Of a DNA stretch of 39,225 bases, positions 1 through 34,548 are shown piece after piece (position 1 is the first letter of the stretch; every line of letters begins with the position of its first letter). Position numbers and translations under genes: made by a program. The stretch spans positions 1-39,225 of IMG/VR virus record IMGVR_UViG_2574180019_000004. The stretch is one strand, 5' to 3'. This DNA comes from a virus. Taxonomy: Duplodnaviria > Heunggongvirae > Uroviricota > Caudoviricetes. A model generated the notes under the pieces. That model searched no databases. It saw only the letters and a list, made by a program, of their open reading frames with translations, and had not been told where the DNA came from.

Positions 1-17
1 ATTGAGTGGGAATGATT
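1..17. repeat. attL core direct repeat attgagtgggaatgatt
   Basis: Exact 17-bp copy at 39209-39225; flanked by imperfect inverted repeat ggaatgatt (9-17) / aatcattcc (36-44). Confidence 0.8.
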
Positions 18-61
18 AACAGCTAACTCATAGCAAATCATTCCTATTCAGATGCCAACTC

Positions 62-95
62 AACCCTCTGTTTTTACAGAGGGTTTTTGTTTTTA
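62..95 (+). terminator. Rho-independent terminator (aaccctctg-ttttta-cagagggtt + T-run)
   Basis: 9-bp GC-containing stem, 6-nt loop, followed by tttttgttttt; lies between attL and int, could insulate int from read-in transcription. Confidence 0.6.
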
Positions 96-150
96 TGTAT
101 TCATTTCTATTCACTCTACACCATATTTTTCGGCGGTACAGGTGACGGTA

Positions 151-165
151 TTACCTTAAAGGTAT
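151..165. promoter_or_regulatory. Imperfect operator-like palindrome TTACCttaaaGGTAt upstream of int
   Basis: Matches 9 of 10 defined positions of the recurring TTACC-N5-GGTAA site; nested in inverted repeat gacggtat/ataccgtc (145-179). Confidence 0.4.
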
Positions 166-207
166 ACTCTCATACCGTCATGAAAATGGTTTCTATACGG
201 GTGAATT

Positions 208-1464
208 GTGCTTACCGATACAAAATTAAAAAACCTCAAGCCGCAGGACAAACTGTACAAGGTCTCCGATCGTGACGGGCTGTATGTAGCTGTGCTTACG
301 TCAGGCACGGTCTCGTTTCGCTATGACTACCGTATCAACGGTCGCCGCGAAACACTGGTAATCGGGCAGTATGGGCGTGACGGTATCAGCCTGGCAGAAG
401 CGCGAGAAGAACTGATTGCTGCAAAGAAGCTGCTTAAAGCAGGCCAGTCGCCGGCTGCGGCTAAACGTGACGGTATCAAAAAGATTCGTGGTGCCGAGAC
501 GTTTGCGGTACATACCGACAGTTATATGAAACACGTCATCCTGGCTGACAGTACCCGCGCAATGAAGCAGGCAGTGATCGACCGTGACATACTTCCTGTT
601 CTTGGCAACAAAATGATGGCTGAAATTACCACATCGATGGTTCGTGATTTGTGTGACCGGATTGTCGAACGCGGTGGTCGGGCAACAGCAGTGCAGGCCA
701 GGGAGATCATCAGCAGCGTATACCGTCACGCCAATGACCGTGGTCATGGTTTGTTTAATCCTGCGGCTGACATTAAACCTTCGTCTATCGCCATATTTAA
801 ACCACGAGAGCGAACACTGACACCAGAAGAAATTGGCCTGTTCTTCCGTACGCTGGATGCCATTGGTGCTATGGGCACTATGAAAATGGCTTTAAAGCTG
901 GTGCTTATCACTATGGTTCGTAAAGGCGAATTCACCAATGCAACGTGGGACGAAATAGATTTTAAAAAATGGACATGGACAATTCCTTCAGACCGCATGA
1001 AGGGAAGCCGGGCGCACGTTATTTACCTGCCTAAACAGGCACAGGATATATTGGTCGGGTTGCAGATGTGCGCTGGTGGAAGTGAATATCTGGTTCCTGG
1101 TCGTTACAACTTCCGGAAGCCATTATCTAATGCCGCTCTGAACTCTCTGATCGACAGAACGGTGAAAATAATAAATGAAGATGGTGAGCATATTCAGGAC
1201 TTCACCGTACATGATATGCGCCGTACAGCCAGTACGTTGTTGCATGAGGCTGGTTATCCTTCAGACTGGATTGAAAAGGCTCTGGCACATGAGCAGAAAG
1301 GTGTGCGCGCCGTATATAACAAAGCGGAATACGCCAGACAGCGCGCCTACATGTTGCAGCAGTGGGCCGATATGATTGATTCCTGGATTAACGGGGAGCA
1401 TACGGATCTGATTCCGTTCTCCCCGTCGAAGTTTGAGAGGTGGATGGAAGACAGTAATAAATAA
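208..1464 (+). CDS. int: Tyrosine-type site-specific integrase (P4-like family)
   Basis: 418-aa ORF adjacent to att repeat; GTG start at 208 preceded by GGGTGA; N-terminal arm-binding-like region and C-terminal HDMRRT / LAHE / Y-containing catalytic region typical of phage integrases. Confidence 0.9.
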   Translation: MLTDTKLKNLKPQDKLYKVSDRDGLYVAVLTSGTVSFRYDYRINGRRETLVIGQYGRDGISLAEAREELIAAKKLLKAGQSPAAAKRDGIKKIRGAETFAVHTDSYMKHVILADSTRAMKQAVIDRDILPVLGNKMMAEITTSMVRDLCDRIVERGGRATAVQAREIISSVYRHANDRGHGLFNPAADIKPSSIAIFKPRERTLTPEEIGLFFRTLDAIGAMGTMKMALKLVLITMVRKGEFTNATWDEIDFKKWTWTIPSDRMKGSRAHVIYLPKQAQDILVGLQMCAGGSEYLVPGRYNFRKPLSNAALNSLIDRTVKIINEDGEHIQDFTVHDMRRTASTLLHEAGYPSDWIEKALAHEQKGVRAVYNKAEYARQRAYMLQQWADMIDSWINGEHTDLIPFSPSKFERWMEDSNK

Positions 1465-1466
1465 TT

Positions 1467-2126
1467 CTATCCTTCCTGGACTTTGGTAAGCGTCAGATTT
1501 CCGCAGAACACTGCGCCGGTGTCGATGTACATCTGGTTTGCATACACCAGTGGGTGATGTGCTGGCGTATGACCGAAGATGAACAAATCGGCACCGGTTA
1601 TCTCCGAGACAATACCGTCCTGCGCGTCGCTAACCCGCTCACGATTCCATATCACCATTTCTTCTGGTACTGGCTTATCGAATGCGTATTCGTTGTGCGG
1701 GTAGTCTGCGTGACAGATGACGACCTTCTTATTGCCGGTAACCAGTTCGATAATCATCGGGAGGTTGGTAATCTTTGGCAGAAGGTATTTGAGTTGCACA
1801 TCCTGCTCAGAATCAAGTTGGTGCCACCATCCACCGCCGTTTGACATCCAATGTCCGAAACTTCCGCCGTTGACCAGTGCATCCAGCATCATCTGCTCAT
1901 GGTTGCCACGAACAGCTCGGAACCACGGCATAGTAATCAAATCCAGGCATTCGACGTTTTCAGCGCCGCGGTCAACAAGGTCACCAACGGAAATAAGTAA
2001 ATCGCGCGCCGGGTCGAATGAAACTTTGTCGAGTTCGTTCATCAGCAGCGTGTAGCACCCATGCAGATCGCCGACGACGAAGATATTGCACCAGTCAGCG
2101 CCATTGATGCGTTGATATAGGTTCAT
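1467..2126 (-). CDS. Serine/threonine protein phosphatase (lambda PPase / calcineurin-like metallophosphoesterase)
   Basis: GDLHGCY, GDLVDRG and GNHE metallophosphatase motifs; start taken at internal ATG (MNLYQRING...) which overlaps stop of upstream gene as ATGA. Confidence 0.85.
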
Positions 2127-2773
2127 GCTGCACGCTCCCGCCCCTGGTTGTCTATTGGTGACACCGGAGCATTGCTGAATGCATTTGTTAATCCGCCAAT
2201 ATCCAACGCGTATCCAGGGTGTAGTTGCACTGCCGGGTCTTCGCACTGATTACCCCAAACATCGAAGCCATGAGACGTCTGGCGGGCGAACAGTTCAATG
2301 CGAGAAACATCGCCTAACAATTGCACAAGTTTTTCACGAACGATATCTGGTTTTCTTGAGTGCTCAAGCCGCGGTGCGGTAAATGACTGAACGATCCCTG
2401 CATTAATGCGCGTAGGTAGTTTTCCCTTTACCGCAAACAGGCAATCTTCACTATTGGCGCGAGTCATGTGTCCCATACCCATAACCAGTTTATCTGGTTG
2501 TCGACTACCACATTTTATCCACGTGAAGCCCTTCATCGTCATCAGACGAAATCCCCAGGCTTCAACAACTTTTAGTGCTTCGAGTGGTTGTGTTGGCACC
2601 CACCACATGGCCAACAGACAGTTTTCAGCGGTCAAATCCCACACAGGAAGGCGGCAGATATCCAGCACACTCATAACTGGATATTTAAAACCGGCACCGC
2701 GATTACCATCTGCGGCTTTGTCCCGGTATACCCAGGGTGGATCTGCATAGATTAGTGTGTATTTCTTAGTCAT
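2123..2773 (-). CDS. DNA N6-adenine methyltransferase (MT-A70-like, orphan)
   Basis: DPPW catalytic motif near N-terminus ([16 protein letters not shown]); no adjacent restriction endonuclease ORF; translationally coupled to phosphatase gene. Confidence 0.85.
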
Positions 2774-3017
2774 AAACCACCCCACAACATCTTATGCCGC
2801 TATAGTCGCCACGGCGAAGGCCGTTACCTTTTGTGATACATTGGTCCCTGCGAACCGCGATCCTTGCACGTTCAACATCACCAGAAGCAACATCCATACA
2901 CTGAAGCCAAAGGTGAGCGGCAATGCGGAACTGCCCTTTTTTCTCTCTTTCAATCGCGCGTTTTTCGATCTCTATCGCCGCAGGAGTAACGGCGACAATC
3001 TTTGACGGACTGCGCAT
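2766..3017 (-). CDS. Hypothetical early protein (83 aa from ATG at 3017)
   Basis: ORF in leftward operon; AAGGT 5 nt upstream of ATG 3017; no recognisable motif; start uncertain. Confidence 0.4.
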   Translation of the reverse strand: MRSPSKIVAVTPAAIEIEKRAIEREKKGQFRIAAHLWLQCMDVASGDVERARIAVRRDQCITKGNGLRRGDYSGIRCCGVVYD

Positions 3018-3174
3018 TGAAACCTTATTCATGTGATATTTTTCAAGTCGGCTTAACTTTCTCACTTAATCCAACCCTCTCTGAAAATTAATGTCAGCAG
3101 ATAAAGCCATGCTGAAACAGAGGCCAGGAATAAGTACCATCCTGACCATTTGCTCCAGTGCCTTAGCAGCGCAC

Positions 3175-3423
3175 TCATGCAGCGTTGCTCACGGGACGAT
3201 ATACACGTTGCTGAACAGGAGGTTTTTTACCCTGGAACTCTGCCGGGCTTGCTGCCTGACGTTCATCAAGCCAACGCTCAACTTCATCACGGTTCCATGC
3301 GCAGCGTTTATCGGTGATATACCAGCGTTTAGGAAATTCCCCTGCGCGCTCCATACGGTCGATAGTGCTCCATGACAGTGGCACCACCGCCAGGAGTTCC
3401 TTCTTACCTAATGCACCTTTCAT
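3175..3423 (-). CDS. AlpA-like phage transcriptional regulator / excisionase-like HTH protein
   Basis: 82-aa protein with AlpA-family signature around STIDRMERAGEFPKR; position in early operon. Confidence 0.7.
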   Translation of the reverse strand: MKGALGKKELLAVVPLSWSTIDRMERAGEFPKRWYITDKRCAWNRDEVERWLDERQAASPAEFQGKKPPVQQRVYRPVSNAA

Positions 3424-3472
3424 AAATACCTCTCTTGGTTGCAGTGCGGCGCGCGTGGCGCCGCGGTGGTGG

Positions 3473-4354
3473 TTACATAGATGTTTCGTTTAATTCTTCC
3501 CGACGAACGCTGTAAACGTCGGTGGCTTTTGCCAGCAGTTCGTCATCATCTGAAAGTTTTTGTGCAATGTATTTGTAAGCCTTATCCAGTTCGGAGACAG
3601 TGCTGTAATTCATCGCTGCGCTGGTAAAGGCCATCAGCATTTCTTCTGGATCACGGCTATCCGCTTTACGCGTTTGCTCATCAGGCTTTTTCGCTGGTTT
3701 AGCGTTGATCAGACTGTTCATTCCCGCAGCAGTGGTCGTTTGCGGAGTAATGTCTCGCTCAACGCGCGGTGCCGTTTCCTGTAATTCGTCAGGGGTGTAA
3801 ACACCGAGAAGTACATCAGGAGCGTGCAGTCGAGCCCATCGTTTCGTGCAAAGATAGGCAAGTTGCTGGCGCGGATCCTGTTCCCACAATGGAGAGTTAC
3901 GCACTCCGGCTTGCGCCATACTGATGGTAAGCTCACGGGGTTCTGCTTCTCCTTTAAGAACCGCTGACACAGTTACCGTCAGATTCGGTGATTTATCTGT
4001 TTTGCCGTTAACATTCGACCAGTCACCGCTCCAGCGATAATTCAGGCGTGTCGCTAGCAGGCTGGAAGAGGATACGACCGCGTTTACCAACTGTGCTTCG
4101 TAGCCTAACGTTCCGTTTACCACATGCGTTTTTTGCGCCACGGCGAAAGGGTTCATTCCCCACTGTGCCGCCTGCATGGTCACCGCCAGACAATCGGCAG
4201 GTTTGCCTTCAAGATGTTTCGGTACAGTCGCTTTGCTTTGTGACATCAACTCCGCGAAACGCACCAGTTGATTCATGCCCTCCGGGCTGAAGATTGCCGC
4301 AGCAGTACCTACAGTTGCGCCTGGTTGTGATGTGATTGCGATATCATTGCTCAT
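3473..4354 (-). CDS. recT: RecT-family single-strand annealing recombinase
   Basis: 293-aa protein with RecT-like core (AQWGMNPF... region); ATGA overlap with upstream exonuclease gene, the classical exo-recT pair. Confidence 0.85.
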   Translation of the reverse strand: MSNDIAITSQPGATVGTAAAIFSPEGMNQLVRFAELMSQSKATVPKHLEGKPADCLAVTMQAAQWGMNPFAVAQKTHVVNGTLGYEAQLVNAVVSSSSLLATRLNYRWSGDWSNVNGKTDKSPNLTVTVSAVLKGEAEPRELTISMAQAGVRNSPLWEQDPRQQLAYLCTKRWARLHAPDVLLGVYTPDELQETAPRVERDITPQTTTAAGMNSLINAKPAKKPDEQTRKADSRDPEEMLMAFTSAAMNYSTVSELDKAYKYIAQKLSDDDELLAKATDVYSVRREELNETSM

Positions 4355-5172
4355 ACGTACATATCCTGTTTACGTGCCCAGTCAGGGCGTTTAATAATTT
4401 CCACTCCGCCCCACTCATCGTTGATGCGGCATTCGTGATAGGTATTCAGATCCCGGCGGAACAGAGCGTGCCCGGCATCGACATCCGGCGCATCCAGCTC
4501 GAACACGCGTACCGGATACCGACCACAATCAATGCTTTCGCTCACGGCAAGAAAGAAAAAACCATGCGGCTGACCAGTAACCTTCATTGCGCCTTCGCGG
4601 TACATTGCGTCCTGCACGTGGTAGCGGAATTCCTCGATGTGGCGTGCAAAACGGTCCATATCTGCAACCTTTTTCACGTCGACGATCACGTTGTGCTCGT
4701 TCAGCCATTTGTCTGGACGAATGCGGCACAACTCACCAGTCTCTTCATCGTTCCAGTACATTGATGCTTCGTAGCAACCAGGTGCTTCCAGCATCCAGCG
4801 TGCCGCCGGGTGAGCCATTGCGCTATCACGCATCAGCTCCAGTTTCCGCCACTGCTCGGCATCAAGTACCGCAATCCCCATATCCGCTACATCACGAAGA
4901 AATGCTTCTTCGTCAGCTTTACCTTGTTTCGTCCGACGATCGAACTTTGGTGAAACAATGAAGCGTTTGTCGAATTCTCCAGGTTCCAGAAGCAGACAGT
5001 GCAATGCAGTTCCCATATCTAGTGCAGACTTTTTCTCTTCGTCTTCTGGTGCTGACTGAACCCATTTAAGAAGCGCCGGATTCTTGGCAACCATGTCCAG
5101 TTGCGACTTACTCACGCCGTCACCGGCGTGGTAGTCTTCGTTGCTGATGTCGAAATAAATTCCCGGTTTCAT
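4351..5172 (-). CDS. Recombination exonuclease (RecE / exonuclease VIII-like PD-(D/E)XK nuclease)
   Basis: 273-aa ORF immediately upstream of and translationally coupled to recT; sequence resembles prophage exodeoxyribonuclease VIII C-terminal domains. Confidence 0.75.
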   Translation of the reverse strand: MKPGIYFDISNEDYHAGDGVSKSQLDMVAKNPALLKWVQSAPEDEEKKSALDMGTALHCLLLEPGEFDKRFIVSPKFDRRTKQGKADEEAFLRDVADMGIAVLDAEQWRKLELMRDSAMAHPAARWMLEAPGCYEASMYWNDEETGELCRIRPDKWLNEHNVIVDVKKVADMDRFARHIEEFRYHVQDAMYREGAMKVTGQPHGFFFLAVSESIDCGRYPVRVFELDAPDVDAGHALFRRDLNTYHECRINDEWGGVEIIKRPDWARKQDMYV

Positions 5173-5468
5173 GCCGCGTCCTTCTGTCCATCAAGCTGAT
5201 CCGCCAGATCCCAGCGGGCGATAATTGCCATTGCCTCTCGCCGATATGCATCCATCAGTTCTTCGAACTCAGGGCTGTCTTTAGCAGCCTCCAGTACTTC
5301 CTGACGAACGCCTTTGCCTGTTACAACGTCGAAAGTTGAGGACAGTTGATGAAGCCGGATACTCTCAATCAGTTCAACTTGTCGGTCATATAGCTGTTCT
5401 GACAGGCGGTAGTCCTTGTCGAATGCCAGCATGATTTTTTGAAGATTTTTCTGCTGATTAACGTTCAT
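5169..5468 (-). CDS. Hypothetical early protein (99 aa, start MNVNQQ)
   Basis: ATG at 5468 preceded by GGGAGGG; stop overlaps exonuclease start; no motif recognised. Confidence 0.5.
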   Translation of the reverse strand: MNVNQQKNLQKIMLAFDKDYRLSEQLYDRQVELIESIRLHQLSSTFDVVTGKGVRQEVLEAAKDSPEFEELMDAYRREAMAIIARWDLADQLDGQKDAA

Positions 5469-5470
5469 TA

Positions 5471-5623
5471 TCAGCCCTCCCATATCTCGTTATCGTTGGC
5501 CACATCGCGAGCTTCTTTGCTGACGAAAGCCCACTTAATACCTTCCTGTAAGGTGCGGAACTTCCAGCTCATGAATCCGCATGCAGTAACGCAGTACCAA
5601 CCGTTGATGATTTTCCACTGCAT
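5471..5623 (-). CDS. Small Trp-rich protein (50 aa), first gene of leftward early operon
   Basis: Hand-translated MQWKIINGWYCVTACGFMSWKFRTLQEGIKWAFVSKEARDVANDNEIWEG; GAGGT 8 nt upstream of ATG; operator palindromes directly upstream; below ORF-track length cutoff. Confidence 0.4.
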   Translation of the reverse strand: MQWKIINGWYCVTACGFMSWKFRTLQEGIKWAFVSKEARDVANDNEIWEG

Positions 5624-5642
5624 AATTTGTTACCTCGGTCTG

Positions 5643-5719
5643 TTACCGTTGAGGTAATAATTATGCGTATTTGGTTTGGTGTCAATAGATATGAGTTAAA
5701 AAAATTACCCGTTAGGTAA
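5643..5719. promoter_or_regulatory. Left operator region (OL-like): two perfect TTACC-N5-GGTAA palindromes
   Basis: TTACCgttgaGGTAA at 5643-5657 and TTACCcgttaGGTAA at 5705-5719, plus extra TGTTACC half-site at 5628-5634; between repressor gene and leftward operon. Confidence 0.6.
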
Positions 5720-5730
5720 TCGAACAGGCA

Positions 5731-5756
5731 ATAAAAAAGCCGCCAGAAGGCGGCTT
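5731..5756 (-). terminator. Rho-independent terminator downstream of repressor gene (also weak on + strand)
   Basis: gccgcc-agaa-ggcggc hairpin; on minus strand followed by T-run (plus-strand aaaaaa at 5733-5738). Confidence 0.6.
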
Positions 5757-5776
5757 ACTTACTGAAAAATATGATT

Positions 5777-6361
5777 TTATTGTTTGTTTTTTTCGTTCTG
5801 GTTGATGACAAATTCAATGTAACTTTCGATCTTTGCTTTCTCGGTTTCGGGTAACAATGCGTAGCGCGAGCGGTCATAGTTGATGGTCGCAGGGTCGTGC
5901 GGGTGAATCAGTAATTCATAGCCGTGACGCCCGAATGCGGATGCAACATTCTCCAGGGTGGAAATGGAAACGCTGACCTCATTGTTTAACAGGCGGCTGA
6001 TTGTCACCTGGGCGACGCCGGATGCGCGGTGAAGTTTTCCCTGCGTTGAAAGGTCGCGGCTTTCGCTCATCCAGCGTTCCAGGTTGTGAGCCGCCAGTTG
6101 ACCAATGTCGCTTGGTCCGACAGGCTGAAAACCTTCCTGAGAAAGCGAGCGATCGATATCAAGCCAGTTACGGGGTTTATTGGCGGCAGCTTCAATTTTT
6201 CGCGCAACCTGGTCGCCGATAACCTTCTTGCCAAGAGCCCAGCGGTTTACCAGATTTGCCTGAGTTCCAAGTTTTTCTGCCATCCGCGTCTGAACACCAT
6301 TGAATTCACGGTCGATCAAGTCGTTGAGATTTTGCCTGCGGACGTCCTGGATACTTTTCAT
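5777..6361 (-). CDS. Prophage repressor, tandem HTH (XRE-like), no obvious autocleavage domain
   Basis: 194 aa; two HTH-like segments (around LGTQANLVNRWALGKK and SGVAQVTISRLLNNEVSVSISTLENVA); flanked on both sides by the recurring palindrome; divergent from Cro-like gene. Confidence 0.7.
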   Translation of the reverse strand: MKSIQDVRRQNLNDLIDREFNGVQTRMAEKLGTQANLVNRWALGKKVIGDQVARKIEAAANKPRNWLDIDRSLSQEGFQPVGPSDIGQLAAHNLERWMSESRDLSTQGKLHRASGVAQVTISRLLNNEVSVSISTLENVASAFGRHGYELLIHPHDPATINYDRSRYALLPETEKAKIESYIEFVINQNEKNKQ

Positions 6362-6416
6362 TTTCTGGAAAATCGCCTCATATATGAATCAGTAGATGAT
6401 TCAATTTAAAGCAATA

Positions 6417-6479
6417 TTACCCAACAGGTAAATGCACCCCATAGGTAACTATCCTTGATTTTTGTTACCTTATGGGTGA
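6417..6479. promoter_or_regulatory. Right operator region (OR-like), tripartite
   Basis: Perfect TTACCcaacaGGTAA 6417-6431; variant cACCccataGGTAA 6435-6448; imperfect TTACCttatgGGTgA 6465-6479; lies between repressor and cro-like starts. Confidence 0.6.
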
Positions 6480-6515
6480 ATATTTATTATCTGAAATAAA
6501 TATCAGGCAATAGCT

Positions 6516-6746
6516 ATGAGCGATAACGGACATTTCGATTTCAAAAAGCACTGGCTTGCACTTACTCCGGATGAGCGTGAAGCCTTCGCACAGGAAGCCG
6601 GAACGACGAGTCACTATATCCAGACTCACTTAACAGGTAAGCGCAAAATGCCAGGTAAAGTATTGATGAATGGGCTTTTTAAAGCCTGTAAATCAAGACA
6701 ATGGTTGCGCTCAAAAGCAGAACTGGCATACTTCTTCTACTCATGA
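6516..6746 (+). CDS. Cro-like small DNA-binding regulator
   Basis: 76-aa basic protein divergent from repressor; HTH-like segment EAGTTSHYIQTHLTGKRKMPGKVL. Confidence 0.6.
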   Translation: MSDNGHFDFKKHWLALTPDEREAFAQEAGTTSHYIQTHLTGKRKMPGKVLMNGLFKACKSRQWLRSKAELAYFFYS

Positions 6747-6767
6747 TATCCAGCCACAACCCTCTGT

Positions 6768-6791
6768 AGACCGCCATCCGGCGGTCTTTTC
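6768..6791 (+). terminator. Rho-independent terminator after cro-like gene (tR1-like position)
   Basis: agaccgcc-atcc-ggcggtct followed by tttt. Confidence 0.65.
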
Positions 6792-6896
6792 ATATCTATT
6801 CGCACCTCAAAGGTAATAAAAAACCAAATCTGGTTGATCTTTTTTTTGTGTCAGCACAAAATAACCGTAATCCCAATACTAATAACAGGGCTTACC

Positions 6897-7097
6897 ATGG
6901 AAATCATTACACGTATTGATGCCGCAAATCGCGGACTTAAACGCTACTACACCGGAAAACCATGTAAGCACGGACATGACAGTGAACGCTGGGTTTACAA
7001 CGGACACTGTGTTGAGTGCACCATGGAATCAAACCGTCGCATCAGGGCAGAGATTAAGCAGATCATGATTAATTCCTCCCCACAACATTCAAGCTGA
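6897..7097 (+). CDS. Small zinc-finger protein (C-x-H-x-H ... C-x2-C), cII-position hypothetical
   Basis: MEIITRIDAANRGLKRYYTGKPCKHGHDSERWVYNGHCVEC; start chosen at internal ATG; variant operator gcACCtcaaaGGTAA at 6802-6816 upstream. Confidence 0.45.
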   Translation: MEIITRIDAANRGLKRYYTGKPCKHGHDSERWVYNGHCVECTMESNRRIRAEIKQIMINSSPQHSS

Positions 7098-7112
7098 TAG
7101 CGGAGATTAATC

Positions 7113-7928
7113 ATGAGCAGACATGCAACAGATTGGGCCTGGGAGACAGATCCAGGTAGCTCGTCATTAAAGCTCATACTGCTCTCGATGGCTGACAGAG
7201 CCGATGAATATAACCTCTGCTACCCCAGCATAGAACGCCTCGTTAAAGACACTTGCCTGAATAAAAAAACCGTGCAGGCCGGGCTTATATCGCTCATGAA
7301 AATGGGGCTTATTTCAGATACCGGAGAGAGAAAGGGAGCGACGAAAAGAGTGCGGGTTTTCTCTCTTAATATAACCAAAAACGGGAACATTAAAGGCAAC
7401 CGGGAAGGGAGCAATGAACCCGAAAACGGTAATGTTACCGAAAACGGGAATATACCCAAAAACGGGATGTTGAATGATCCCAAAAACGGGATGTTGAATG
7501 ATCCCAAAAACGGGATCCAGAACCAGTCATATAACCAGTCATTTAACCAAGAGAGGGAGAGCAGGACAAAAAGCGGGGATTCTGTGCCTCATGACCCCGG
7601 CGCAAACAACGCCGTGATGAATAACTTTGTTCCTCCTGGTGGGCCAGGGCAATTAGGCAAATTTGTCATGCATGAACAATGGCAGCCATCAGATGACTTT
7701 CTTCGGAAAAGCTCCTTGCAGGGGATCTACCTGGACAGTCTGCCAACGGCACAGGAACTTGCAGAGTTCAGAATTTACTGGATGGCTGAGGGTAAGGCAT
7801 ACCATCAGGCACAGTGGGAGCAGAAGCTGGCAAGGCGGCTGCAGATTAGCAGACAGAAGCAATCAACATTACCTGATAACAACGTTCCGCACTGGAACAG
7901 CCCTGAAGCGTGGGAGGATTTCTTGTGA
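7113..7928 (+). CDS. Replication initiator (lambda O-like) containing internal iterons
   Basis: N-terminal winged-helix-like region (LKLILLSMADRADEY...TVQAGLISLMKMGLI); internal ENGN/KNGM repeats encoded by DNA iterons; followed by P-like gene with GTGA overlap. Confidence 0.65.
   Translation: MSRHATDWAWETDPGSSSLKLILLSMADRADEYNLCYPSIERLVKDTCLNKKTVQAGLISLMKMGLISDTGERKGATKRVRVFSLNITKNGNIKGNREGSNEPENGNVTENGNIPKNGMLNDPKNGMLNDPKNGIQNQSYNQSFNQERESRTKSGDSVPHDPGANNAVMNNFVPPGGPGQLGKFVMHEQWQPSDDFLRKSSLQGIYLDSLPTAQELAEFRIYWMAEGKAYHQAQWEQKLARRLQISRQKQSTLPDNNVPHWNSPEAWEDFL
7374..7517. repeat. Iteron array (candidate origin of replication) inside O-like gene
   Basis: Six copies of CCnAAAACGG(G/T)AA at 7374, 7419, 7438, 7455, 7479, 7503, including perfect 24-bp tandem cccaaaaacgggatgttgaatgat x2; followed by direct repeat aaccagtcat(a/t)taacc. 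Confidence 0.7.
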
Positions 7929-8710
7929 ACAACGTTTTTACCGCGATACAAAACCGTGACGGAGAAGCCCTTTCTCGCATGTCAGGTTATGAGCATCAGT
8001 ACGTCAACAATGACAATGTGGTGAACATGTCAGCAGAGAGGCTTGTTGATGCCCTTTTCAAACAGCTGAAACAACTGTTTCCGGCGGCAGTGGTAACCAA
8101 CCTGAAGACGCCAGAGCAGGAAGTTGCTGCAAAACAGCAGTGGATTGCTGCGTTTGCCGAAGGGGGAATACGTACCCGTGAACAGGTTTCTGCTGGTATG
8201 CGCCACGCCCGCGCCAGTGAATCTCCGTTCTGGCCGTCGCCAGGGCAATTCATCAAGTGGTGTAAAGACAGCAAGATGGTTCTTGGCGTCACCATTGACG
8301 ATGTGATGGCGGAGTTTCACCGGTACAGCAAGGAAAAAAGTTTATATCCTGGTGGTCCCGAAAGATTCCCGTGGCGGCATCCGGTTATGTACTGGGTCGT
8401 ATGTGATACACGCCGTGCAATGTATCAGCGCCAGCTTAGCGAGATTGAGGTTGAGAAACACGCGCGCAGGCTGCTCGATGATTGGGCGAAAAAGGTGGCT
8501 TCCGGACAGCAGATACCCGATCCGGTGATCAGCATACAGGCAAAGCCAGAGCCCATGAGTACACCTCCGGACACAGGGAGAGACGTTTACCATCCACCAG
8601 GGCGAAGTTTCGGGTGCATGCCTAACGCCGCCACCCTTGGGGGAATAACACCGGCGCAGTGGCTGATGGAGGAATACAGGCGGGGAAAGGCGGCAGGATT
8701 TATCAAGTAA
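7925..8710 (+). CDS. Replication protein P-like (DnaB helicase loader)
   Basis: Matches remembered lambda P segments (SPFWPSPGQFIKWCKD vs lambda RPFLPSPGQFVAWCRE; MRHARAS vs MRVARRQ); GTG start 7925 after GGGAGGA. Confidence 0.85.
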   Translation: MNNVFTAIQNRDGEALSRMSGYEHQYVNNDNVVNMSAERLVDALFKQLKQLFPAAVVTNLKTPEQEVAAKQQWIAAFAEGGIRTREQVSAGMRHARASESPFWPSPGQFIKWCKDSKMVLGVTIDDVMAEFHRYSKEKSLYPGGPERFPWRHPVMYWVVCDTRRAMYQRQLSEIEVEKHARRLLDDWAKKVASGQQIPDPVISIQAKPEPMSTPPDTGRDVYHPPGRSFGCMPNAATLGGITPAQWLMEEYRRGKAAGFIK

Positions 8711-8747
8711 TACCAGCGCGATAGCGCATTTTTTTACGCCTCAATAA

Positions 8748-8824
8748 TTACCTATGAGGTAACAAAATATTCTAAGCTCTATTGATTTTGTGTCTTATGT
8801 GGTTTTTAATTACCTTAGAGGTAA
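8748..8824. promoter_or_regulatory. Two perfect operator palindromes upstream of accessory/late operon
   Basis: TTACCtatgaGGTAA 8748-8762 and TTACCttagaGGTAA 8810-8824 (second overlaps RBS of gene at 8828); ATGTGGTT motif at 8797. Confidence 0.6.
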
Positions 8825-8827
8825 ATC

Positions 8828-9172
8828 ATGAGAAAACAGATACAGGCTCTTGGTCGACTCAAAACAGGCCAGATGAACAAAACAGAATCTGCGTATTGCC
8901 AGCACCTTGAGCAGCGTAAACGTGCAGGGGAAATCGTCTGGTATCGATTTGAGGGTATCAAGCTGCGGTTAGCTGACAACACGTTCTATACGCCCGATTT
9001 TGCTGTGATGCTCGCCACCGGCGAGATGGAACTGCACGAAGTGAAAGGTTTCTGGACCGACGACGCCAGGGTGAAAACCAAAGTCGCCGCAGATCAGTAT
9101 CCGTTCCGAATCATCGGGGTAACGGTTAAACCAAAGAAAGCAGGTGGTGGCTGGAACATCGAAGAGTTCTGA
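8828..9172 (+). CDS. DUF1064-like protein, possible PD-(D/E)XK-type nuclease
   Basis: 114 aa; D...E-x-K pattern (YTPDFAV ... ELHEVKG); identification from memory of family, not verified. Confidence 0.5.
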   Translation: MRKQIQALGRLKTGQMNKTESAYCQHLEQRKRAGEIVWYRFEGIKLRLADNTFYTPDFAVMLATGEMELHEVKGFWTDDARVKTKVAADQYPFRIIGVTVKPKKAGGGWNIEEF

Positions 9173-9233
9173 ATCGACGATCTTTTTAGTTATCAATGTA
9201 ATCAATAAGTTATGTGGATAAGCGAGGGTAAAG

Positions 9234-9749
9234 ATGGAAAGTAATATCAAAGGGTTAGTTGCCGCCGGGCATGAGATGGCTTCGGAACTGAAAGCAGAAT
9301 GTGGTGCCGTTGATATGCGCAGTGTGGCAAAGCTGATCAGCGATTTGGCAACGCAACTGGAAGTGCAACTGGTGCGTGCTAATGCGATGGCCGAAGACCA
9401 GCAGAAAGCGATTGAGTCAATTAAGCAGGCTGATGCAGCTGTTAAGTTGGCACACGAGAAGTTTTCGGCGCTGGCAGCAGAGAATGCGGAGCTTAAACAG
9501 TCGGAGAAGGAATTTAATAACTTCTGTCGTCAGGAGTACTACGGTTGGGAGGACAACTTCACGGAAACCCCAGCCACCGACGCTTTCCTGGCTGAAGTAC
9601 GGGCGCAGGCGTTTAATGACCTTTGCTCGGTGTTCGTTAAGCACGCGTCGGTGTCCGGGCTGGACGATGGCGACTGCGTTACGGTGAAAGAGGCGACTGA
9701 CGCCCTGCTGCATTGTGCGGAACAGCTTCACGAGGGAGTGCATTCATGA
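9234..9749 (+). CDS. Hypothetical phage protein (coiled-coil rich)
   Basis: 171-aa ORF with RBS AGGGTAAAG; no motif recognised. Confidence 0.55.
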   Translation: MESNIKGLVAAGHEMASELKAECGAVDMRSVAKLISDLATQLEVQLVRANAMAEDQQKAIESIKQADAAVKLAHEKFSALAAENAELKQSEKEFNNFCRQEYYGWEDNFTETPATDAFLAEVRAQAFNDLCSVFVKHASVSGLDDGDCVTVKEATDALLHCAEQLHEGVHS

Positions 9750-9979
9750 GCAACCTACTACCATGTCCATTCTGTGGCGGCGCAGCGCACGTTGCCAGCG
9801 AAGCAGATCACCCTGAATATGGCTCTGGCGGTCGATTCTATTTCGTTCGATGCGGTACGTGTCGCGCTCAATCTGGTAGCAAATATGCAGCGCCTGGAAA
9901 TGACTGCGCGATTTTTTATTCAGAGGTTAGAGCAGAGTGGAATCAGCGAGCAAAGGAGGCAACCAGTGAGCGAAATTAA
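9746..9979 (+). CDS. lar: Lar-family restriction alleviation protein
   Basis: N-terminal MSNLLPCPFCGG motif and second Cys pair (CGTC), WNQR near C-terminus, as in Rac RalR/Lar; RBS GAGGGAG. Confidence 0.75.
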   Translation: MSNLLPCPFCGGAAHVASEADHPEYGSGGRFYFVRCGTCRAQSGSKYAAPGNDCAIFYSEVRAEWNQRAKEATSERN

Positions 9980-10382
9980 TTACCAGGCACTGCGTGAGGC
10001 GGCGGAAGCAATAAAAGTCGTGGCAGCGCCGCAAAAATTGCTTGCCTTTCGCATGAAGGTCACGCCGCAGGTTGTGCTGGCCCTGCTGGATGAACGGGAA
10101 AGAAACCAGCAATACATCAAACGCCGCGACCAGGAGAACGAGGAGATTGCGCTAACGGTAGGGAAGCTGCGTGTTGAGCTTGAAGCAGAAAAACAGCGGG
10201 CAAAAGTTCTATTTATGGAAAATGCTCGGCTTAAGTCAGGCATAGCCGGTCTGATACACCTCGGTATTCGATATGCAGATGTTGAGGTCATGAAAATTGC
10301 TGGAGATGCCCAGCTTTCTACCCCATGCACTGACAGCATCATAAACAGCATTGCAACAGGCATTCGCATCAAAGGAGAGTGA
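9966..10382 (+). CDS. Hypothetical protein (Ea22-like, coiled coil)
   Basis: GTG start after strong RBS GGAGG; begins VSEINYQALREAAEA; overlaps lar 3' end. Confidence 0.5.
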   Translation: MSEINYQALREAAEAIKVVAAPQKLLAFRMKVTPQVVLALLDERERNQQYIKRRDQENEEIALTVGKLRVELEAEKQRAKVLFMENARLKSGIAGLIHLGIRYADVEVMKIAGDAQLSTPCTDSIINSIATGIRIKGE

Positions 10383-10383
10383 T

Positions 10384-10965
10384 ATGAGCGCTATAACCAA
10401 AGAACGTATCAAATTATTCATTAAAAATCCGCTTGATAACGGACTTACTCGTGGCGAACAAATGGAACTGGCACGAATTGCACTGGCATCACTGGGAGCA
10501 GAACCTGTAAGCCAAACTTACAACTTGCCAGAATTAATCGAAGGCATGGAGGTTTCCATTGATGTAAGCACTTGTGATGCGGATTTAGGTAATCGCTATT
10601 TCGGTACCGTCACCGAGGCGTTAGAACTTGATACTGCCAAGAATGGTTACATCCTCCTGGTTCAGGACGCAGAGCCAAACTTCGATATAAATGGCAACTC
10701 TCCGGTAACTCCGGATGGTTGGGTTATAGTGCCGAAGAAACTAACCGCTGAGAACGGCGCTAAGGGTGTGCTATCCGGTGAATTTTCAGAAACGACGTTT
10801 ATAAGCTGCCCGGAATGTTTTGGCGATGATGATTGCGATACCTGTGACGGTAGCGGGCGGATTGAAATTAAAGTACCAGTCACGTGGACGACCATAAAAT
10901 CCATCTGGGATAAAGGTATTGCGTATTTTGCAGCAGAACCGAGGCAGGAGGTTAACCGTGGCTAA
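10384..10965 (+). CDS. DUF551-like protein with C-terminal zinc ribbon
   Basis: NGNSPVTPDGW motif; CPECFGDDDCDTCDGSGR zinc ribbon; shares DNA modules with next gene. Confidence 0.6.
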   Translation: MSAITKERIKLFIKNPLDNGLTRGEQMELARIALASLGAEPVSQTYNLPELIEGMEVSIDVSTCDADLGNRYFGTVTEALELDTAKNGYILLVQDAEPNFDINGNSPVTPDGWVIVPKKLTAENGAKGVLSGEFSETTFISCPECFGDDDCDTCDGSGRIEIKVPVTWTTIKSIWDKGIAYFAAEPRQEVNRG

Positions 10966-15293: not shown

Positions 15294-15370
15294 TGGCGTG
15301 GCATGCAGGATTCGAACCTGCGACCAACCGCTTAGAAGGCGGTTGCTCTGTCCGACTGAGCTAATGCCAC
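15294..15370 (-). tRNA. tRNA-Arg (anticodon UCU)
   Basis: Minus-strand 77-nt cloverleaf folded by hand: acceptor GTGGCAT/ATGCCAC, D-stem GCTC/GAGC, anticodon stem ACCGC/GCGGT with loop CTTCTAA, T-arm GCAGG-TTCGAAT-CCTGC, discriminator G, encoded CCA. Confidence 0.9.
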
Positions 15371-32263: not shown

Positions 32264-32950
32264 TCAGAAGAACCCTGCTTTGTCGTTGATGTACTCCGCG
32301 TGCGTCTGGATATCACGCAGGCATTTGTTCACACCGACGATGTAGCAGAACATGGTGGTCAACTCCGCCGCCGCGCCCGATACGTCGTGCCCGTCTTCCT
32401 GTAACTGGTTCAGCAGATTCATCAGCAGTGAGTTCTCCGTCAGGCCGAGAACACCAGACGGCGAGTGAATCAGACTGCGGTAGCCGGGCTTTAGTGGGGC
32501 GCTGTAGGTTTTGTTCTCTATCTTCATTGCCTGCATCACTGCTGATGCTGTGGCGTTGGCTACCTGGTCGGCAACCATCTTTATGCGTTCTTCTTGCGGG
32601 AGCGAGTTTTTAATGTAACTTCCGGTGCGGCGGATCTGAGGAAGAACCTCACCTGTAACCCATTTACGAAAGCGGTATGGGATAGTGCCTGGTGTCACCG
32701 CATCGCGGCAGCGGAGGATCAGTGTGTAGAGGCCTGACTCGTTGATAATATTGGTTTCGCCTTGACGGCCTAAGTTAAATTTAGCCCTTTCATCATCATC
32801 AAGAGATTTTATTGACATAGTGGGGTTTGTCAGTTGAAGAGCTTTAATAACGTCTTTGGCAACAAACCAAGGATTTCCATCAATAACAATGGCTCGAATG
32901 GTTGCTTCTGATTCAAAATGAAAAACAGATGGGGTTACGTTAGCAGTCAT
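32264..32950 (-). CDS. Bro-N domain antirepressor-like protein
   Basis: Start at internal ATG (MTANVTPSVFHFESEATIRAIVIDGNPWFVAKDV = Bro-N signature) with RBS AAGGTGA; C-terminal approx 70 aa paralogous to the small gene at 34096-34353. Confidence 0.75.
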   Translation of the reverse strand: MTANVTPSVFHFESEATIRAIVIDGNPWFVAKDVIKALQLTNPTMSIKSLDDDERAKFNLGRQGETNIINESGLYTLILRCRDAVTPGTIPYRFRKWVTGEVLPQIRRTGSYIKNSLPQEERIKMVADQVANATASAVMQAMKIENKTYSAPLKPGYRSLIHSPSGVLGLTENSLLMNLLNQLQEDGHDVSGAAAELTTMFCYIVGVNKCLRDIQTHAEYINDKAGFF

Positions 32951-33231
32951 AGTGATCACCTTTGTAGTTAGGTTAATCACCACTACCGACGCCAATCGGT
33001 TGGTGGTGAACTGTGCAGGGTTGGCGTAACCGGCTACAAAGGACCCGGCGCACCTTTCGGTGCCCCCACACAGCCCACCATAGAATAGGTGCGCTTTACA
33101 CATAAAAAAACCGCTTATGCGGCATATGTGCCTCTGTAGTAATCCGGGACGCCAATCCCGGCACTGGATTTTGCCAGTGCCCGATTACTATGGCACAAGA
33201 GGAGTGCGATGTAAATTTACCGTAAAGGTAA
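32951..33231 (-). promoter_or_regulatory. Structured 5' leader / candidate small RNA upstream of Bro-N antirepressor
   Basis: Hairpin 32977-33009 (12-bp stem, loop ACGCCAAT); complementary TTGGCGT at 33021-33027; hairpin 33050-33063; terminator-like ccgc-ttat-gcgg + A-run (33104-33122); three-helix element 33136-33191 with loop ACGCCAAT again; candidate -35 TTGATT / -10 TATCAT on minus strand. Confidence 0.4.
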
Positions 33232-33324
33232 TGATAAGCGCGAAGAAACATTGAAATCAACCGTATTTGGTTGATTGCGTTTAACGCTTGATCACCTGAA
33301 AGCAAGATATTACCTTTAAGGTAA
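33217..33324. promoter_or_regulatory. Two perfect operator palindromes in divergent promoter region
   Basis: TTACCgtaaaGGTAA 33217-33231 and TTACCtttaaGGTAA 33310-33324 (20 bp upstream of ATG of gene at 33345). Confidence 0.6.
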
Positions 33325-33344
33325 TGTTATTGTGAGGAAAAGCA

Positions 33345-34073
33345 ATGGAAGTTTTCTGGATAGTTGTTGGTGTGGTTGCGGTGATTATTTACGTTATCAA
33401 CCAGAACAAGACTAAGATCTCTGATCGTACGGTCGTTAATCATAACAAAACGATAAAGACCGAAGATGGGGAGATAACGATTAATCGTACACAGGTGATA
33501 GAACACACCTCTACTCAGTTTCAAAAAACTGGAGGTAATGCGCCTAATATTTCCGCACCTCCTGCTTATGATAGTGCGGTAATCCAGACATATTATAAAC
33601 AGCAGGAGTTAGCAAAAGAGAGGCAACTGATTCAGCCAAAGCCGTTTACAGCTGAGATTCCACCTGGAGTGTCAACGCGTCCGGCATATCATGGAAGATT
33701 CCCTGGTGATGACATATCGTCTCAGTCATCTAAAAAAGCACCTCAGGCAATATCAGAGCCAGCAAGAATACCTTCTGTATCGCCGCCAAAAGAAGAATCA
33801 GCTAACAGAGTTTCAAGTGGTAGCAAGCAGTGCTTGCGATGCAGAATAAACCTTCCATATGAAAAATTCAGGAAATCGTCAAAAAATCCAGATGGATTGA
33901 CTAAATGGTGTGCAAGGTGTCTCGATGGCCCAAAGAATACACGCCATATGAAGTGGTGCCCAATTTGTAATGTCCGCAGAAAACGAACCAGCTTTTACCC
34001 TAATAATCAAAATGCGGACGGCTTAATGGCATGGTGCAAAACGTGCTGGGATGAGCACAAAGCGAAACGATAG
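33345..34073 (+). CDS. Membrane-anchored tandem zinc-ribbon protein (unknown function)
   Basis: N-terminal TM helix (VFWIVVGVVAVIIYVI) followed by basic NQNKTK; S/P-rich linker; two repeated modules KxCxRC...NPDGLxxWCxxC (CLRC...WCARC and CPIC...WCKTC); RBS GAGGAAAAG. Confidence 0.65.
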   Translation: MEVFWIVVGVVAVIIYVINQNKTKISDRTVVNHNKTIKTEDGEITINRTQVIEHTSTQFQKTGGNAPNISAPPAYDSAVIQTYYKQQELAKERQLIQPKPFTAEIPPGVSTRPAYHGRFPGDDISSQSSKKAPQAISEPARIPSVSPPKEESANRVSSGSKQCLRCRINLPYEKFRKSSKNPDGLTKWCARCLDGPKNTRHMKWCPICNVRRKRTSFYPNNQNADGLMAWCKTCWDEHKAKR

Positions 34074-34097
34074 GCCGCTCTTGCGGCCTTTAAATTT
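34072..34097. terminator. Intrinsic terminator shared by convergent genes
   Basis: ggccgc-tctt-gcggcc followed by tttaaattt. Confidence 0.55.
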
Positions 34098-34353
34098 ACC
34101 GGGTTTGTTTTCGTAATTGTTCGGCACAATAGTCGAGATGTGTTTGCAGATCCCGCATAGACATCTGTGAGCTGGTGACGTAGTTAATCAGTGCAGTCAG
34201 TTCGGCAAGTGGGCCATCGACATTAAATCCATCCTTATCGAGATCCCGGAGTAATTTCATCAAGTGCGATCCCTCCACCAGTGACCTGACGCCTCCCGGC
34301 GTGTGAATCCTTTCGGTAAATCCGTCTTCCAGTGGATAGTGATACTGCTGCAT
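34096..34353 (-). CDS. Small antirepressor-like protein (85 aa), LexA-box controlled
   Basis: ATG 34353 after GGAGAAG; paralogous to Bro-N protein C-terminus (IHTPGGVRSLVEGSHLMKLL...AELTALINYV vs IHSPSGVLGLTENSLLMNLL...AELTTMFCYI); LexA box about 20 bp upstream. Confidence 0.6.
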   Translation of the reverse strand: MQQYHYPLEDGFTERIHTPGGVRSLVEGSHLMKLLRDLDKDGFNVDGPLAELTALINYVTSSQMSMRDLQTHLDYCAEQLRKQTR

Positions 34354-34372
34354 CTTATCTTCTCCATGCAAT

Positions 34373-34392
34373 AACTGTATATTTATACAGTA
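34373..34392. promoter_or_regulatory. LexA (SOS) box
   Basis: aaCTGTATATTTATACAGta = CTGT-N8-ACAG, 18/20 match to consensus TACTGTATATATATACAGTA. Confidence 0.7.
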
Positions 34393-34429
34393 GCAAATAA
34401 TTTGTTTGCTATCCAGCACGTTTTGCAAA

Positions 34430-34444
34430 TCACCTGAAAGGTAA
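34430..34444. promoter_or_regulatory. Variant operator tCACCtgaaaGGTAA between antirepressor-like and tail fibre genes
   Basis: Right half perfect, left half CACC variant as at 6435 and 6802; ATGTGGTT motif at 34477. Confidence 0.4.
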
Positions 34445-34548
34445 TATCTTTTCGTATTTATGGATTATCTATCCATATGTGGTTTTTCAGGTAATAGAAT
34501 AACCAGATATGCGGCGCAACGGGTGCTGCGACTATCTGGAGATTTAAC

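Follow-up and report, generated by a model that had tools for sequence, protein, structure and literature searches.

Three accessory genes in the early region of a phiV10-like temperate podophage, encoding a lambda-type protein phosphatase, an MT-A70 adenine methyltransferase and a Lar-like zinc-ribbon protein, probably represent independent, exchangeable cassettes and not a unit (we give this reading a probability of about 0.7). The DNA analysed, referred to here as the window, is the whole 39,225-base stretch of IMG/VR record IMGVR_UViG_2574180019_000004 and corresponds to a complete ~39 kb phiV10/epsilon15-like temperate podophage of the genus Uetakevirus. Positions 1467-9979 of the window are the early region of this phage, with two divergent early operons flanking the repressor gene. 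Region 1-10500 shows 98.3% identity over 91% with Escherichia phage vB_EcoP_PAS61 (OQ921333; hereafter PAS61), 97% identity over 82% with phiV10 (NC_007804), and matches 331 complete Escherichia coli records (328 genomes) at a coverage of at least 80%. A preliminary description had grouped the three genes as a likely anti-restriction and host-takeover set. They are predicted as follows:

1467..2126, - strand: lambda-type (NinI) Mn-dependent Ser/Thr protein phosphatase of 219 amino acids (Pfam, PHROG and 1G5B alignment).
2123..2773, - strand: MT-A70 (DPPW) N6-adenine methyltransferase of 216 amino acids (Pfam MT-A70).
9746..9979, + strand: Lar-family zinc-ribbon protein (CPFC...CGTC) of 77 amino acids (Pfam Lar_restr_allev).

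None of them is a chance open reading frame (ORF): the same coding sequences are annotated by RefSeq/GenBank in near-identical prophages. The three genes are thus already annotated in RefSeq prophages and in PAS61, the element belongs to a common type of E. coli prophage, and there is nothing new in their presence.

The methyltransferase stop and the phosphatase start share an ATGA (...GCAGCATGAAC...), an overlap which the preliminary description had pointed out and which is indeed present. Aligned with each other, the window and phiV10 agree in every base up to the methyltransferase gene end and over the first five bases of the gene that follows (...GCAGCATGAA). Past GCAGCATGAA both sequences are unrelated, and they become identical again inside the int 3' end, the cassette borders being exact. 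At this slot phiV10 shows a gene encoding a 64-amino acid DUF1382 protein, with the same ATGA overlap and an identical methyltransferase 3' end. From this alignment, the phosphatase gene is a cassette located between the methyltransferase stop codon and the int 3' end, which exactly replaces the DUF1382 gene. Since the ATGA is kept with either DUF1382 or the phosphatase, the coupling is a property of the slot and not of the gene pair. Furthermore, short overlaps are usual in the leftward operon (4-8 nucleotides at six of its eight junctions, from coordinates and sequences) and the junction between the Eae and Lar genes is also an ATGA, so the overlap says nothing specific about a partnership between methyltransferase and phosphatase.

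Among phage records, the phosphatase was found at this slot in PAS61 and BP9 only. About 15 related phage records align with the slot's two flanks but not with its content here, and those which are annotated contain a short DUF1382 or hypothetical gene. The int/methyltransferase junction is present in 635 complete E. coli genomes. Roughly 100-150 of them show the phosphatase version (94 records at an identity of at least 99%, and 148 genomes at a coverage of at least 80%, the latter including a few nin-region matches), and most of the remaining ones show DUF1382 in the slot. PAS61 and the APEC O1 prophage match the window at 100% identity over 1400-2200.

The three genes are also present or absent independently in closely related elements. 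phiV10 shows the same genome type and gene order as the window, but it has DUF1382 in place of the phosphatase, a fused RecE-RecT and no Lar; of the three genes it contains only the methyltransferase, and the gene at the corresponding place of Lar does not belong to this family. PAS61, E. coli 6629 and APEC O1 show the same int, phosphatase, MT-A70 and PerC arrangement as the window, and therefore both methyltransferase and phosphatase, but none of them has Lar, and Eae is directly followed by other ea/ead genes. The prophage of strain 6629 covers 94% of positions 1-10397 and is still devoid of Lar. In the window, Lar is about 7 kb away from the other two genes, in the opposite, rightward early operon, where it lies as a mosaic cassette among ea/ead genes, and the Lar gene with its flanks was found in 47 of 5426 E. 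coli genomes. When 40 loci with methyltransferase homologues (55-91% identity) from other species were compared, a lambda-type phosphatase was located within 3 kb of the homologue in one locus and a PerC-like gene in nine, and no Lar, PNB-2 (searched by tblastn) or DUF1382 was found within this distance in any of the 40. Immediate neighbours vary among these loci and include NinB, RusA-like, YbcO, HNH endonuclease, DnaC-like or O-like replication proteins, DndB-like proteins and other methyltransferases, and the homologues occur both in nin regions and in leftward operons. These variable neighbours indicate that the methyltransferase behaves as an autonomous module. Against this reading it must be said that evolutionary independence of the cassettes is no proof that they never cooperate. 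As a separate observation, Vibrio phages of the "D" series, with genomes of about 60 kb, have homologues of both kinds in the same genome, one of MT-A70 (41% identity) and one of the Lar-like protein (50% identity), approximately 22 kb apart (e.g. OZ196543.1, at ~34.0 and ~56.7 kb).

The assignment of the methyltransferase to the MT-A70 adenine methyltransferases, already made in the preliminary description, is borne out by a match to the whole Pfam profile (PF05063, positions 1-172 of 172; 79.4 bits, cut-off 23.9). The domain spans residues 5-176 of 216, is followed by a tail of about 40 amino acids and shows no separate target-recognition domain. The catalytic motif YADPPWVY is at residues 9-16, in the permuted, beta-class order. 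By sequence, the best solved relatives are the Tetrahymena (ciliate) MTA1-type DNA m6A enzyme and METTL3; the IELFAR block and another conserved block align with Tetrahymena MTA1. The claim that no partner endonuclease accompanies the gene holds for the window: its neighbours are the PerC-like gene and the phosphatase, no endonuclease adjoins it, and PADLOC matches the methyltransferase alone, by the Type II methyltransferase model (MTase_II, 260 bits). No PADLOC match was obtained for the phosphatase, PerC, Lar, DUF1064 or exonuclease genes. The phage T1 Dam protein was considered as an MT-A70 GATC enzyme and rejected, since it belongs to PF05869 and does not align.

The closest studied relatives of the MT-A70 methyltransferase of the window (METHYLTRANSFERASE) are MT-A70 enzymes of Stx2a phages. 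Amino acids 1-187 show 83% identity to the methylases of phages P13374 (the O104:H4 outbreak phage) and F723, and the tail (amino acids 188-216, ~29 residues) does not align with the Stx-phage enzyme and is unrelated to it. The Stx loci contain the exact gp5/gp6 primer sequences used by Gong, Chakraborty and Koudelka (PMC10810198). In that study, M.EcoPA8orf6770P raises spontaneous induction and virulence; the enzyme alone has an in vitro DNA activity near to, or indistinguishable from, background, and with PNB-2, encoded by the gene upstream, it associates in a 1:1 complex which prefers 16S ribosomal RNA (rRNA) in 30S subunits. PNB-2 binding was suggested to run through the C-terminal ~27 residues of the Stx enzyme (PMC10810198). 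The near-identical M.EcoGV is listed as methylating GATC in vivo on overproduction (PMC6602927, Table 3; Fang 2012 as cited in PMC10810198). Published data on the 83% homologue are thus in conflict, with GATC methylation in vivo and 16S rRNA methylation in vitro (PMC10810198, PMC6602927).

The window locus and the loci of M.EcoGV/M.EcoPA8orf6770P (P13374, F723 and PA8) are alike in the DPPW motif, the location near int in a leftward operon and the slot for a small gene which overlaps the methyltransferase end by 4 nucleotides. However, the Stx-phage locus has PNB-2 upstream and DUF1382 downstream, whereas the window has the PerC-like gene and the phosphatase at these places, and the C-terminal tails are unrelated. 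The PerC-like protein was considered as a relative of PNB-2 and rejected because no alignment was obtained, as was also the case for the 67-amino acid protein upstream in F723. The window gave no match to the PNB-2 5' primer sequence when up to three mismatches were allowed. The window therefore lacks both features tied to the rRNA activity, the upstream PNB-2 and the Stx-type C-terminal tail. The upstream proteins of F723 (67 amino acids) and P13374 (143 amino acids, PNB-2) are unrelated to each other, but share the same last ten residues, LYIDEFENAL, before the methyltransferase start; this common end may be a recombination boundary or a conserved contact peptide.

Upstream of the methyltransferase, the gene content of relatives is variable. 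Salmonella phage SPN1S and a Citrobacter prophage show a DUF1317 gene and a gene encoding a DndB-like (DGQHR) protein between PerC and the methyltransferase, so PerC is not a fixed partner. Klebsiella and Scandinavium prophages show, directly before the methyltransferase, a gene whose product matches PD-(D/E)XK weakly (23.9 bits, under the cut-off of 26.1). In SPN1S, Scandinavium and Klebsiella pneumoniae ATCC 13883, the gene before the MT-A70 homologue overlaps it by 1-4 nucleotides. The DndB-like DGQHR protein matches Pfam DndB with E=1e-42, and the PD-(D/E)XK-like alternative corresponds to PDDEXK_5, below its cut-off. The slot between PerC and the methyltransferase thus looks in these relatives like an insertion hot spot for DNA-modification-like or nuclease-like genes.

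The leftward operon contains, in order of transcription, small ORFs and the genes encoding the exonuclease, RecT, AlpA/Xis, PerC, methyltransferase and phosphatase, the last two being distal. A terminator-like hairpin is located at 5756-5737, after the repressor gene, and the phiV10 annotation has a terminator at the same place. Past the hairpin, a consensus scan found a promoter-like site, TTGACA-17-AATTAT, at 5685-5657. This predicted promoter is likely the start of a leftward early transcript which ends with the methyltransferase and phosphatase genes. A simple consensus scan of the - strand, from the promoter-like site to position 1467, found no further promoter-like or terminator-like site; both genes would therefore be distal genes of one early transcript, which runs head-on into int.

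The favoured reading of the methyltransferase, with about even odds, is that it modifies adenine in DNA by itself and is an early product of the leftward transcript. Upon infection or induction, this transcript would yield a stand-alone MT-A70 N6-adenine methyltransferase, which would act on replicating phage DNA, and incidentally on host DNA, at a short motif (GATC is the one reported for the 83%-identical M.EcoGV). Methylation of this motif could give partial protection from restriction enzymes which are blocked by methylation there. In favour of the DNA reading are the match to the PADLOC Type II methyltransferase model, the GATC specificity listed for M.EcoGV and the DndB-like or PD-(D/E)XK-like genes found directly before some homologues. 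Several points weigh against this reading. GATC is mildly depleted in the window (143 sites, observed/expected 0.69) and some 6-bp palindromes are rarer than expected: AAGCTT occurs once against 7.8 expected and CTGCAG five times against 18. This site depletion weakly opposes a broad methylation-based protection, but the counts are small and do not settle the question. In addition, a dam+ E. coli host would make GATC methylation largely redundant, promoter and terminator were called by consensus match only, and the near-background DNA activity in vitro and the 16S rRNA preference of the homologue make a DNA or anti-restriction role not secure (PMC10810198).

It is unlikely, although a serious alternative, that the MT-A70 enzyme of the window is mainly a 16S rRNA methyltransferase, or a regulator of lysogeny and induction like M.EcoPA8orf6770P, perhaps with the PerC-like protein as its partner. 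The 83% identity extends over the whole catalytic core of an Stx-phage enzyme whose loci contain the exact primer sequences of PMC10810198, the position of the gene is alike, close to int and at the left end, a small regulator-like upstream gene overlaps the methyltransferase start in the window and in the Stx phages, and no target-recognition domain is found outside the 172-residue MT-A70 core. However, neither the window nor any of the 40 other loci has PNB-2, the tail linked to PNB-2 is replaced by unrelated sequence, PerC is often split from the methyltransferase by inserted genes in relatives, and the rRNA claim itself comes from an S-adenosylmethionine-consumption assay in which the modified base was unmapped (PMC10810198, discussion). 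If it were true that the methyltransferase of this widespread prophage family acts on rRNA or tunes induction, it would matter for the biology of prophages in pathogenic E. coli, but nothing of this can be read from the sequence. By analogy with the Stx phages, a broader proposal can be made, which we consider very doubtful: the MT-A70 enzyme of phiV10-like phages would be a partner-directed rRNA, or dual DNA/RNA, methyltransferase which sets the rate of spontaneous induction, and the small genes overlapping its start (PerC-like, PNB-2, DndB-like and PD-(D/E)XK-like) or its stop (DUF1382 and phosphatase) would be interchangeable adaptor or effector subunits.

The third gene, described previously as a Lar-family restriction alleviation gene, gives a mixed result against the family profiles: its product scores above the cut-off of Pfam Lar_restr_allev (PF14354; 38.5 bits, cut-off 28.6) and below that of TIGR03655 (29.4 bits, cut-off 39.6). 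The zinc ribbon shows two CxxC pairs, CPFC at residues 7-10 and CGTC at residues 36-39, and no related solved structure was found. Identity to Lar of the Rac prophage is 26% over 42 amino acids. Both proteins share the Pfam family, the CPFCG...CxxC zinc ribbon and the condition of small proteins encoded in the early accessory region of a temperate phage, but the protein of the window has a 14-residue insertion between the cysteine pairs, falls below the TIGR03655 cut-off and has no RalA antisense RNA. From these scores, the predicted protein is a peripheral family member. It is 100% identical in the lambdoid phage HK106 and 96% in P22-like Salmonella phages. In E. coli 2013C-4974, Lar is in the ea region of a P22-like prophage, between an anti-RecBCD gene and xis-int. 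The same prophage contains a Ser/Thr protein kinase gene near a LexA-family (CI-type) repressor gene, with two small ORFs between them, and the window lacks this kinase gene.

In current annotation and in the literature, the founder of the family, Rac Lar (E. coli K-12 b1348), is described as RalR, an endodeoxyribonuclease toxin whose antitoxin is the small RNA (sRNA) RalA (PMC4041452). A role of the Lar-like protein as a DNase toxin like RalR, or as an ea-region zinc-ribbon protein with some other function, rather than as an anti-restriction factor, is nevertheless doubtful. The reassignment of the founder, the low identity to it, the score below TIGR03655 and the finding of the same zinc ribbon beside or within DUF551-type proteins speak for such a role. 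On the other side, the original genetic work did show restriction alleviation by Rac Lar (King and Murray 1995, cited in PMC4041452), and no RalA-like antitoxin RNA (Rfam RF02694) was found in the window at the gathering score, nor at E<=1 in 9000-10600, with a model that recovers RalA in Rac at 225 bits. Given the absence of RalA from the window, a RalR/RalA-type pair is not present. In the reading of independent cassettes, the Lar-like product would be a small zinc-ribbon protein whose putative anti-Type I role has no other basis than the name of the family, and restriction alleviation by it would be a name-based guess.

A counter-restriction role for the methyltransferase and Lar is plausible as a fair family-level guess. 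However, the equations of an orphan MT-A70 methyltransferase with anti-restriction, and of the Lar family with restriction alleviation, are name-based and must be taken with caution: for both, the nearest relatives studied by experiment were assigned different functions, as a 16S rRNA methyltransferase controlling Stx-phage induction and as the DNase toxin RalR, respectively.

The phosphatase matches Pfam Metallophos (E=1.4e-15) and the PHROG "NinI-like serine-threonine phosphatase" (E=8.6e-108). Its alignment with the lambda phosphatase, NinI (1G5B), is full-length and ungapped (E=9e-100), with 145 identical residues of 217 (67%). The GDxHG, GDxVDRG and GNHE motifs and the His ligands of lambda-type phosphatases are present, and all the metal-binding and catalytic residues checked are kept (D20, H22, D49, R53, N75, H76, H139 and H186), in the numbering of the 1G5B structure. 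It differs from PrpA and PrpB, the paralogues of the host, and scores below both equivalog cut-offs, with 266 bits for NF008516 (cut-off 326) and 222 bits for NF007425 (cut-off 332). The predicted product is therefore certainly an enzyme of the lambda protein phosphatase (PPase) type, in agreement with the preliminary description. The nearest other phosphatase DNA is ninI of HK225/phi80 (78.6%), which adjoins ninE. In lambda, ninI belongs to the nin region, which separates the replication genes from Q, whereas the phosphatase gene of the window is at the end of the leftward operon, beside int. In the cassette reading, its product would be an active orthologue of lambda PPase, the gene having been acquired from the nin region of a lambdoid phage.

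The proposal that the phosphatase acts on phosphorylation-based defences is speculation: in the literature, no work was found tying lambda-type phosphatases to bacterial defence systems or to defences of this kind. The only phage phosphatase with a counter-defence role that was found is a Macro-domain ADPR-1P phosphatase (bioRxiv 10.64898/2026.01.28.702374), which is not lambda-type. A mycobacteriophage metallophosphoesterase which damages host DNA (PMC12287305) is not lambda-type either, and in a paper on the T7 kinase the lambda phosphatase is used only as a reagent. Also speculative is the opposite idea, in which a prophage phosphatase could weaken the action of the kinase when a T7-like phage superinfects. 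A coordinated counter-defence or host-takeover module of Lar, orphan methyltransferase and translationally coupled phosphatase, the last aimed at phosphorylation-based defences, is very improbable: although the three families are real, an ATGA is shared by the methyltransferase and phosphatase genes, Lar-like proteins are classed in PHROG as "host takeover" and protection against restriction is common for phage methyltransferases (general knowledge; PMC5778455, discussion), the ATGA persists when DUF1382 replaces the phosphatase, the genes come and go independently in near-identical phages and do not co-localise in the 40 loci from other species (phosphatase nearby in one, Lar in none), they lie 7 kb apart in two operons, and lambda-type PPases have no link to defence systems that we found, ninI being non-essential in lambda (PMC10695390).

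The gene order of the window is that annotated in PAS61 and phiV10: int (+), leftward early operon (-), repressor (-) and rightward early operon. The latter contains cro-like, DnaT-like, lambda-P-like, DUF1064, Eae and Ead/Ea22 genes, and beyond it are the packaging, virion, tailspike and lysis genes. In related prophages (E. coli 6629 and APEC O1), guaA adjoins the element. In addition to the three genes listed above, the following features are predicted in and around the early region:

208..1464, + strand: tyrosine integrase with P4-type arm-binding and catalytic domains (Pfam Arm-DNA-bind_3, Phage_int_M and Phage_integrase).
2766..3065, - strand: PerC-like small regulator (Pfam PerC, 30 bits; PHROG transcriptional activator).
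3062..3178, - strand: 38-amino acid predicted membrane peptide, homologue of PhiV10p35, with ATGA/GTGA overlaps with both neighbours.
3175..3423, - strand: AlpA-type excisionase/regulator (Pfam Phage_AlpA; PHROG excisionase).
3473..4354, - strand: RecT single-strand annealing protein (Pfam RecT, E=1.3e-31).
4351..5172, - strand: PD-(D/E)XK exonuclease, RecE-like, DUF3799 (Pfam and PHROG profile matches).
5657..5756, - strand: terminator-like hairpin (5756-5737) followed by a sigma-70-like promoter (5685-5657) (consensus scan).
5777..6361, - strand: double-HTH repressor (Pfam HTH_3; PHROG transcriptional regulator).
9234..9749, + strand: Eae-like protein of the rightward early operon, whose stop overlaps the Lar start (ATGA).
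9966..10382, + strand: Ead/Ea22-like protein (Pfam Ead_Ea22, E=1.9e-21).

The integrase gene is convergent with the leftward early operon, and the PerC-like gene overlaps the methyltransferase start by 8 nucleotides. The Ead/Ea22-like gene has a GTG start with the Shine-Dalgarno sequence AAAGGAGG, and overlaps the Lar 3' end by 14 nucleotides. The RecT and PD-(D/E)XK exonuclease genes (3473-5172, - strand) are separate ORFs in the window, with a 4-nucleotide overlap, whereas a single fused RecE-RecT is annotated in phiV10; APEC O1 shows at this position a different pair, YqaJ and RecT.

Outside the early region, a tRNA-Arg gene (anticodon TCT; 15294-15370, - strand) is located between the terminase and portal genes, and it is also annotated in the APEC O1 prophage. 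The G+C content falls to 0.42-0.44 over 33000-37000, a region which contains a gene encoding an 883-amino acid tailspike with an endosialidase-chaperone (Peptidase_S74) domain. PAS61 shows an O-antigen acetylase ORF at its tailspike region, and none is found in 33000-37000 of the window. Rfam matches correspond to an isrK Hfq-binding RNA at 33104-33180 and a C4 antisense RNA at 32999-33085 (- strand), which are directly upstream of, and overlap the start of, an ORF encoding a 279-amino acid BRO-N (antirepressor-like) protein (32264-33103). The whole segment 32264-33180 (- strand) looks like an sRNA-controlled antirepressor module of the P1/P7 or Gifsy type, located between the virion and tailspike genes.

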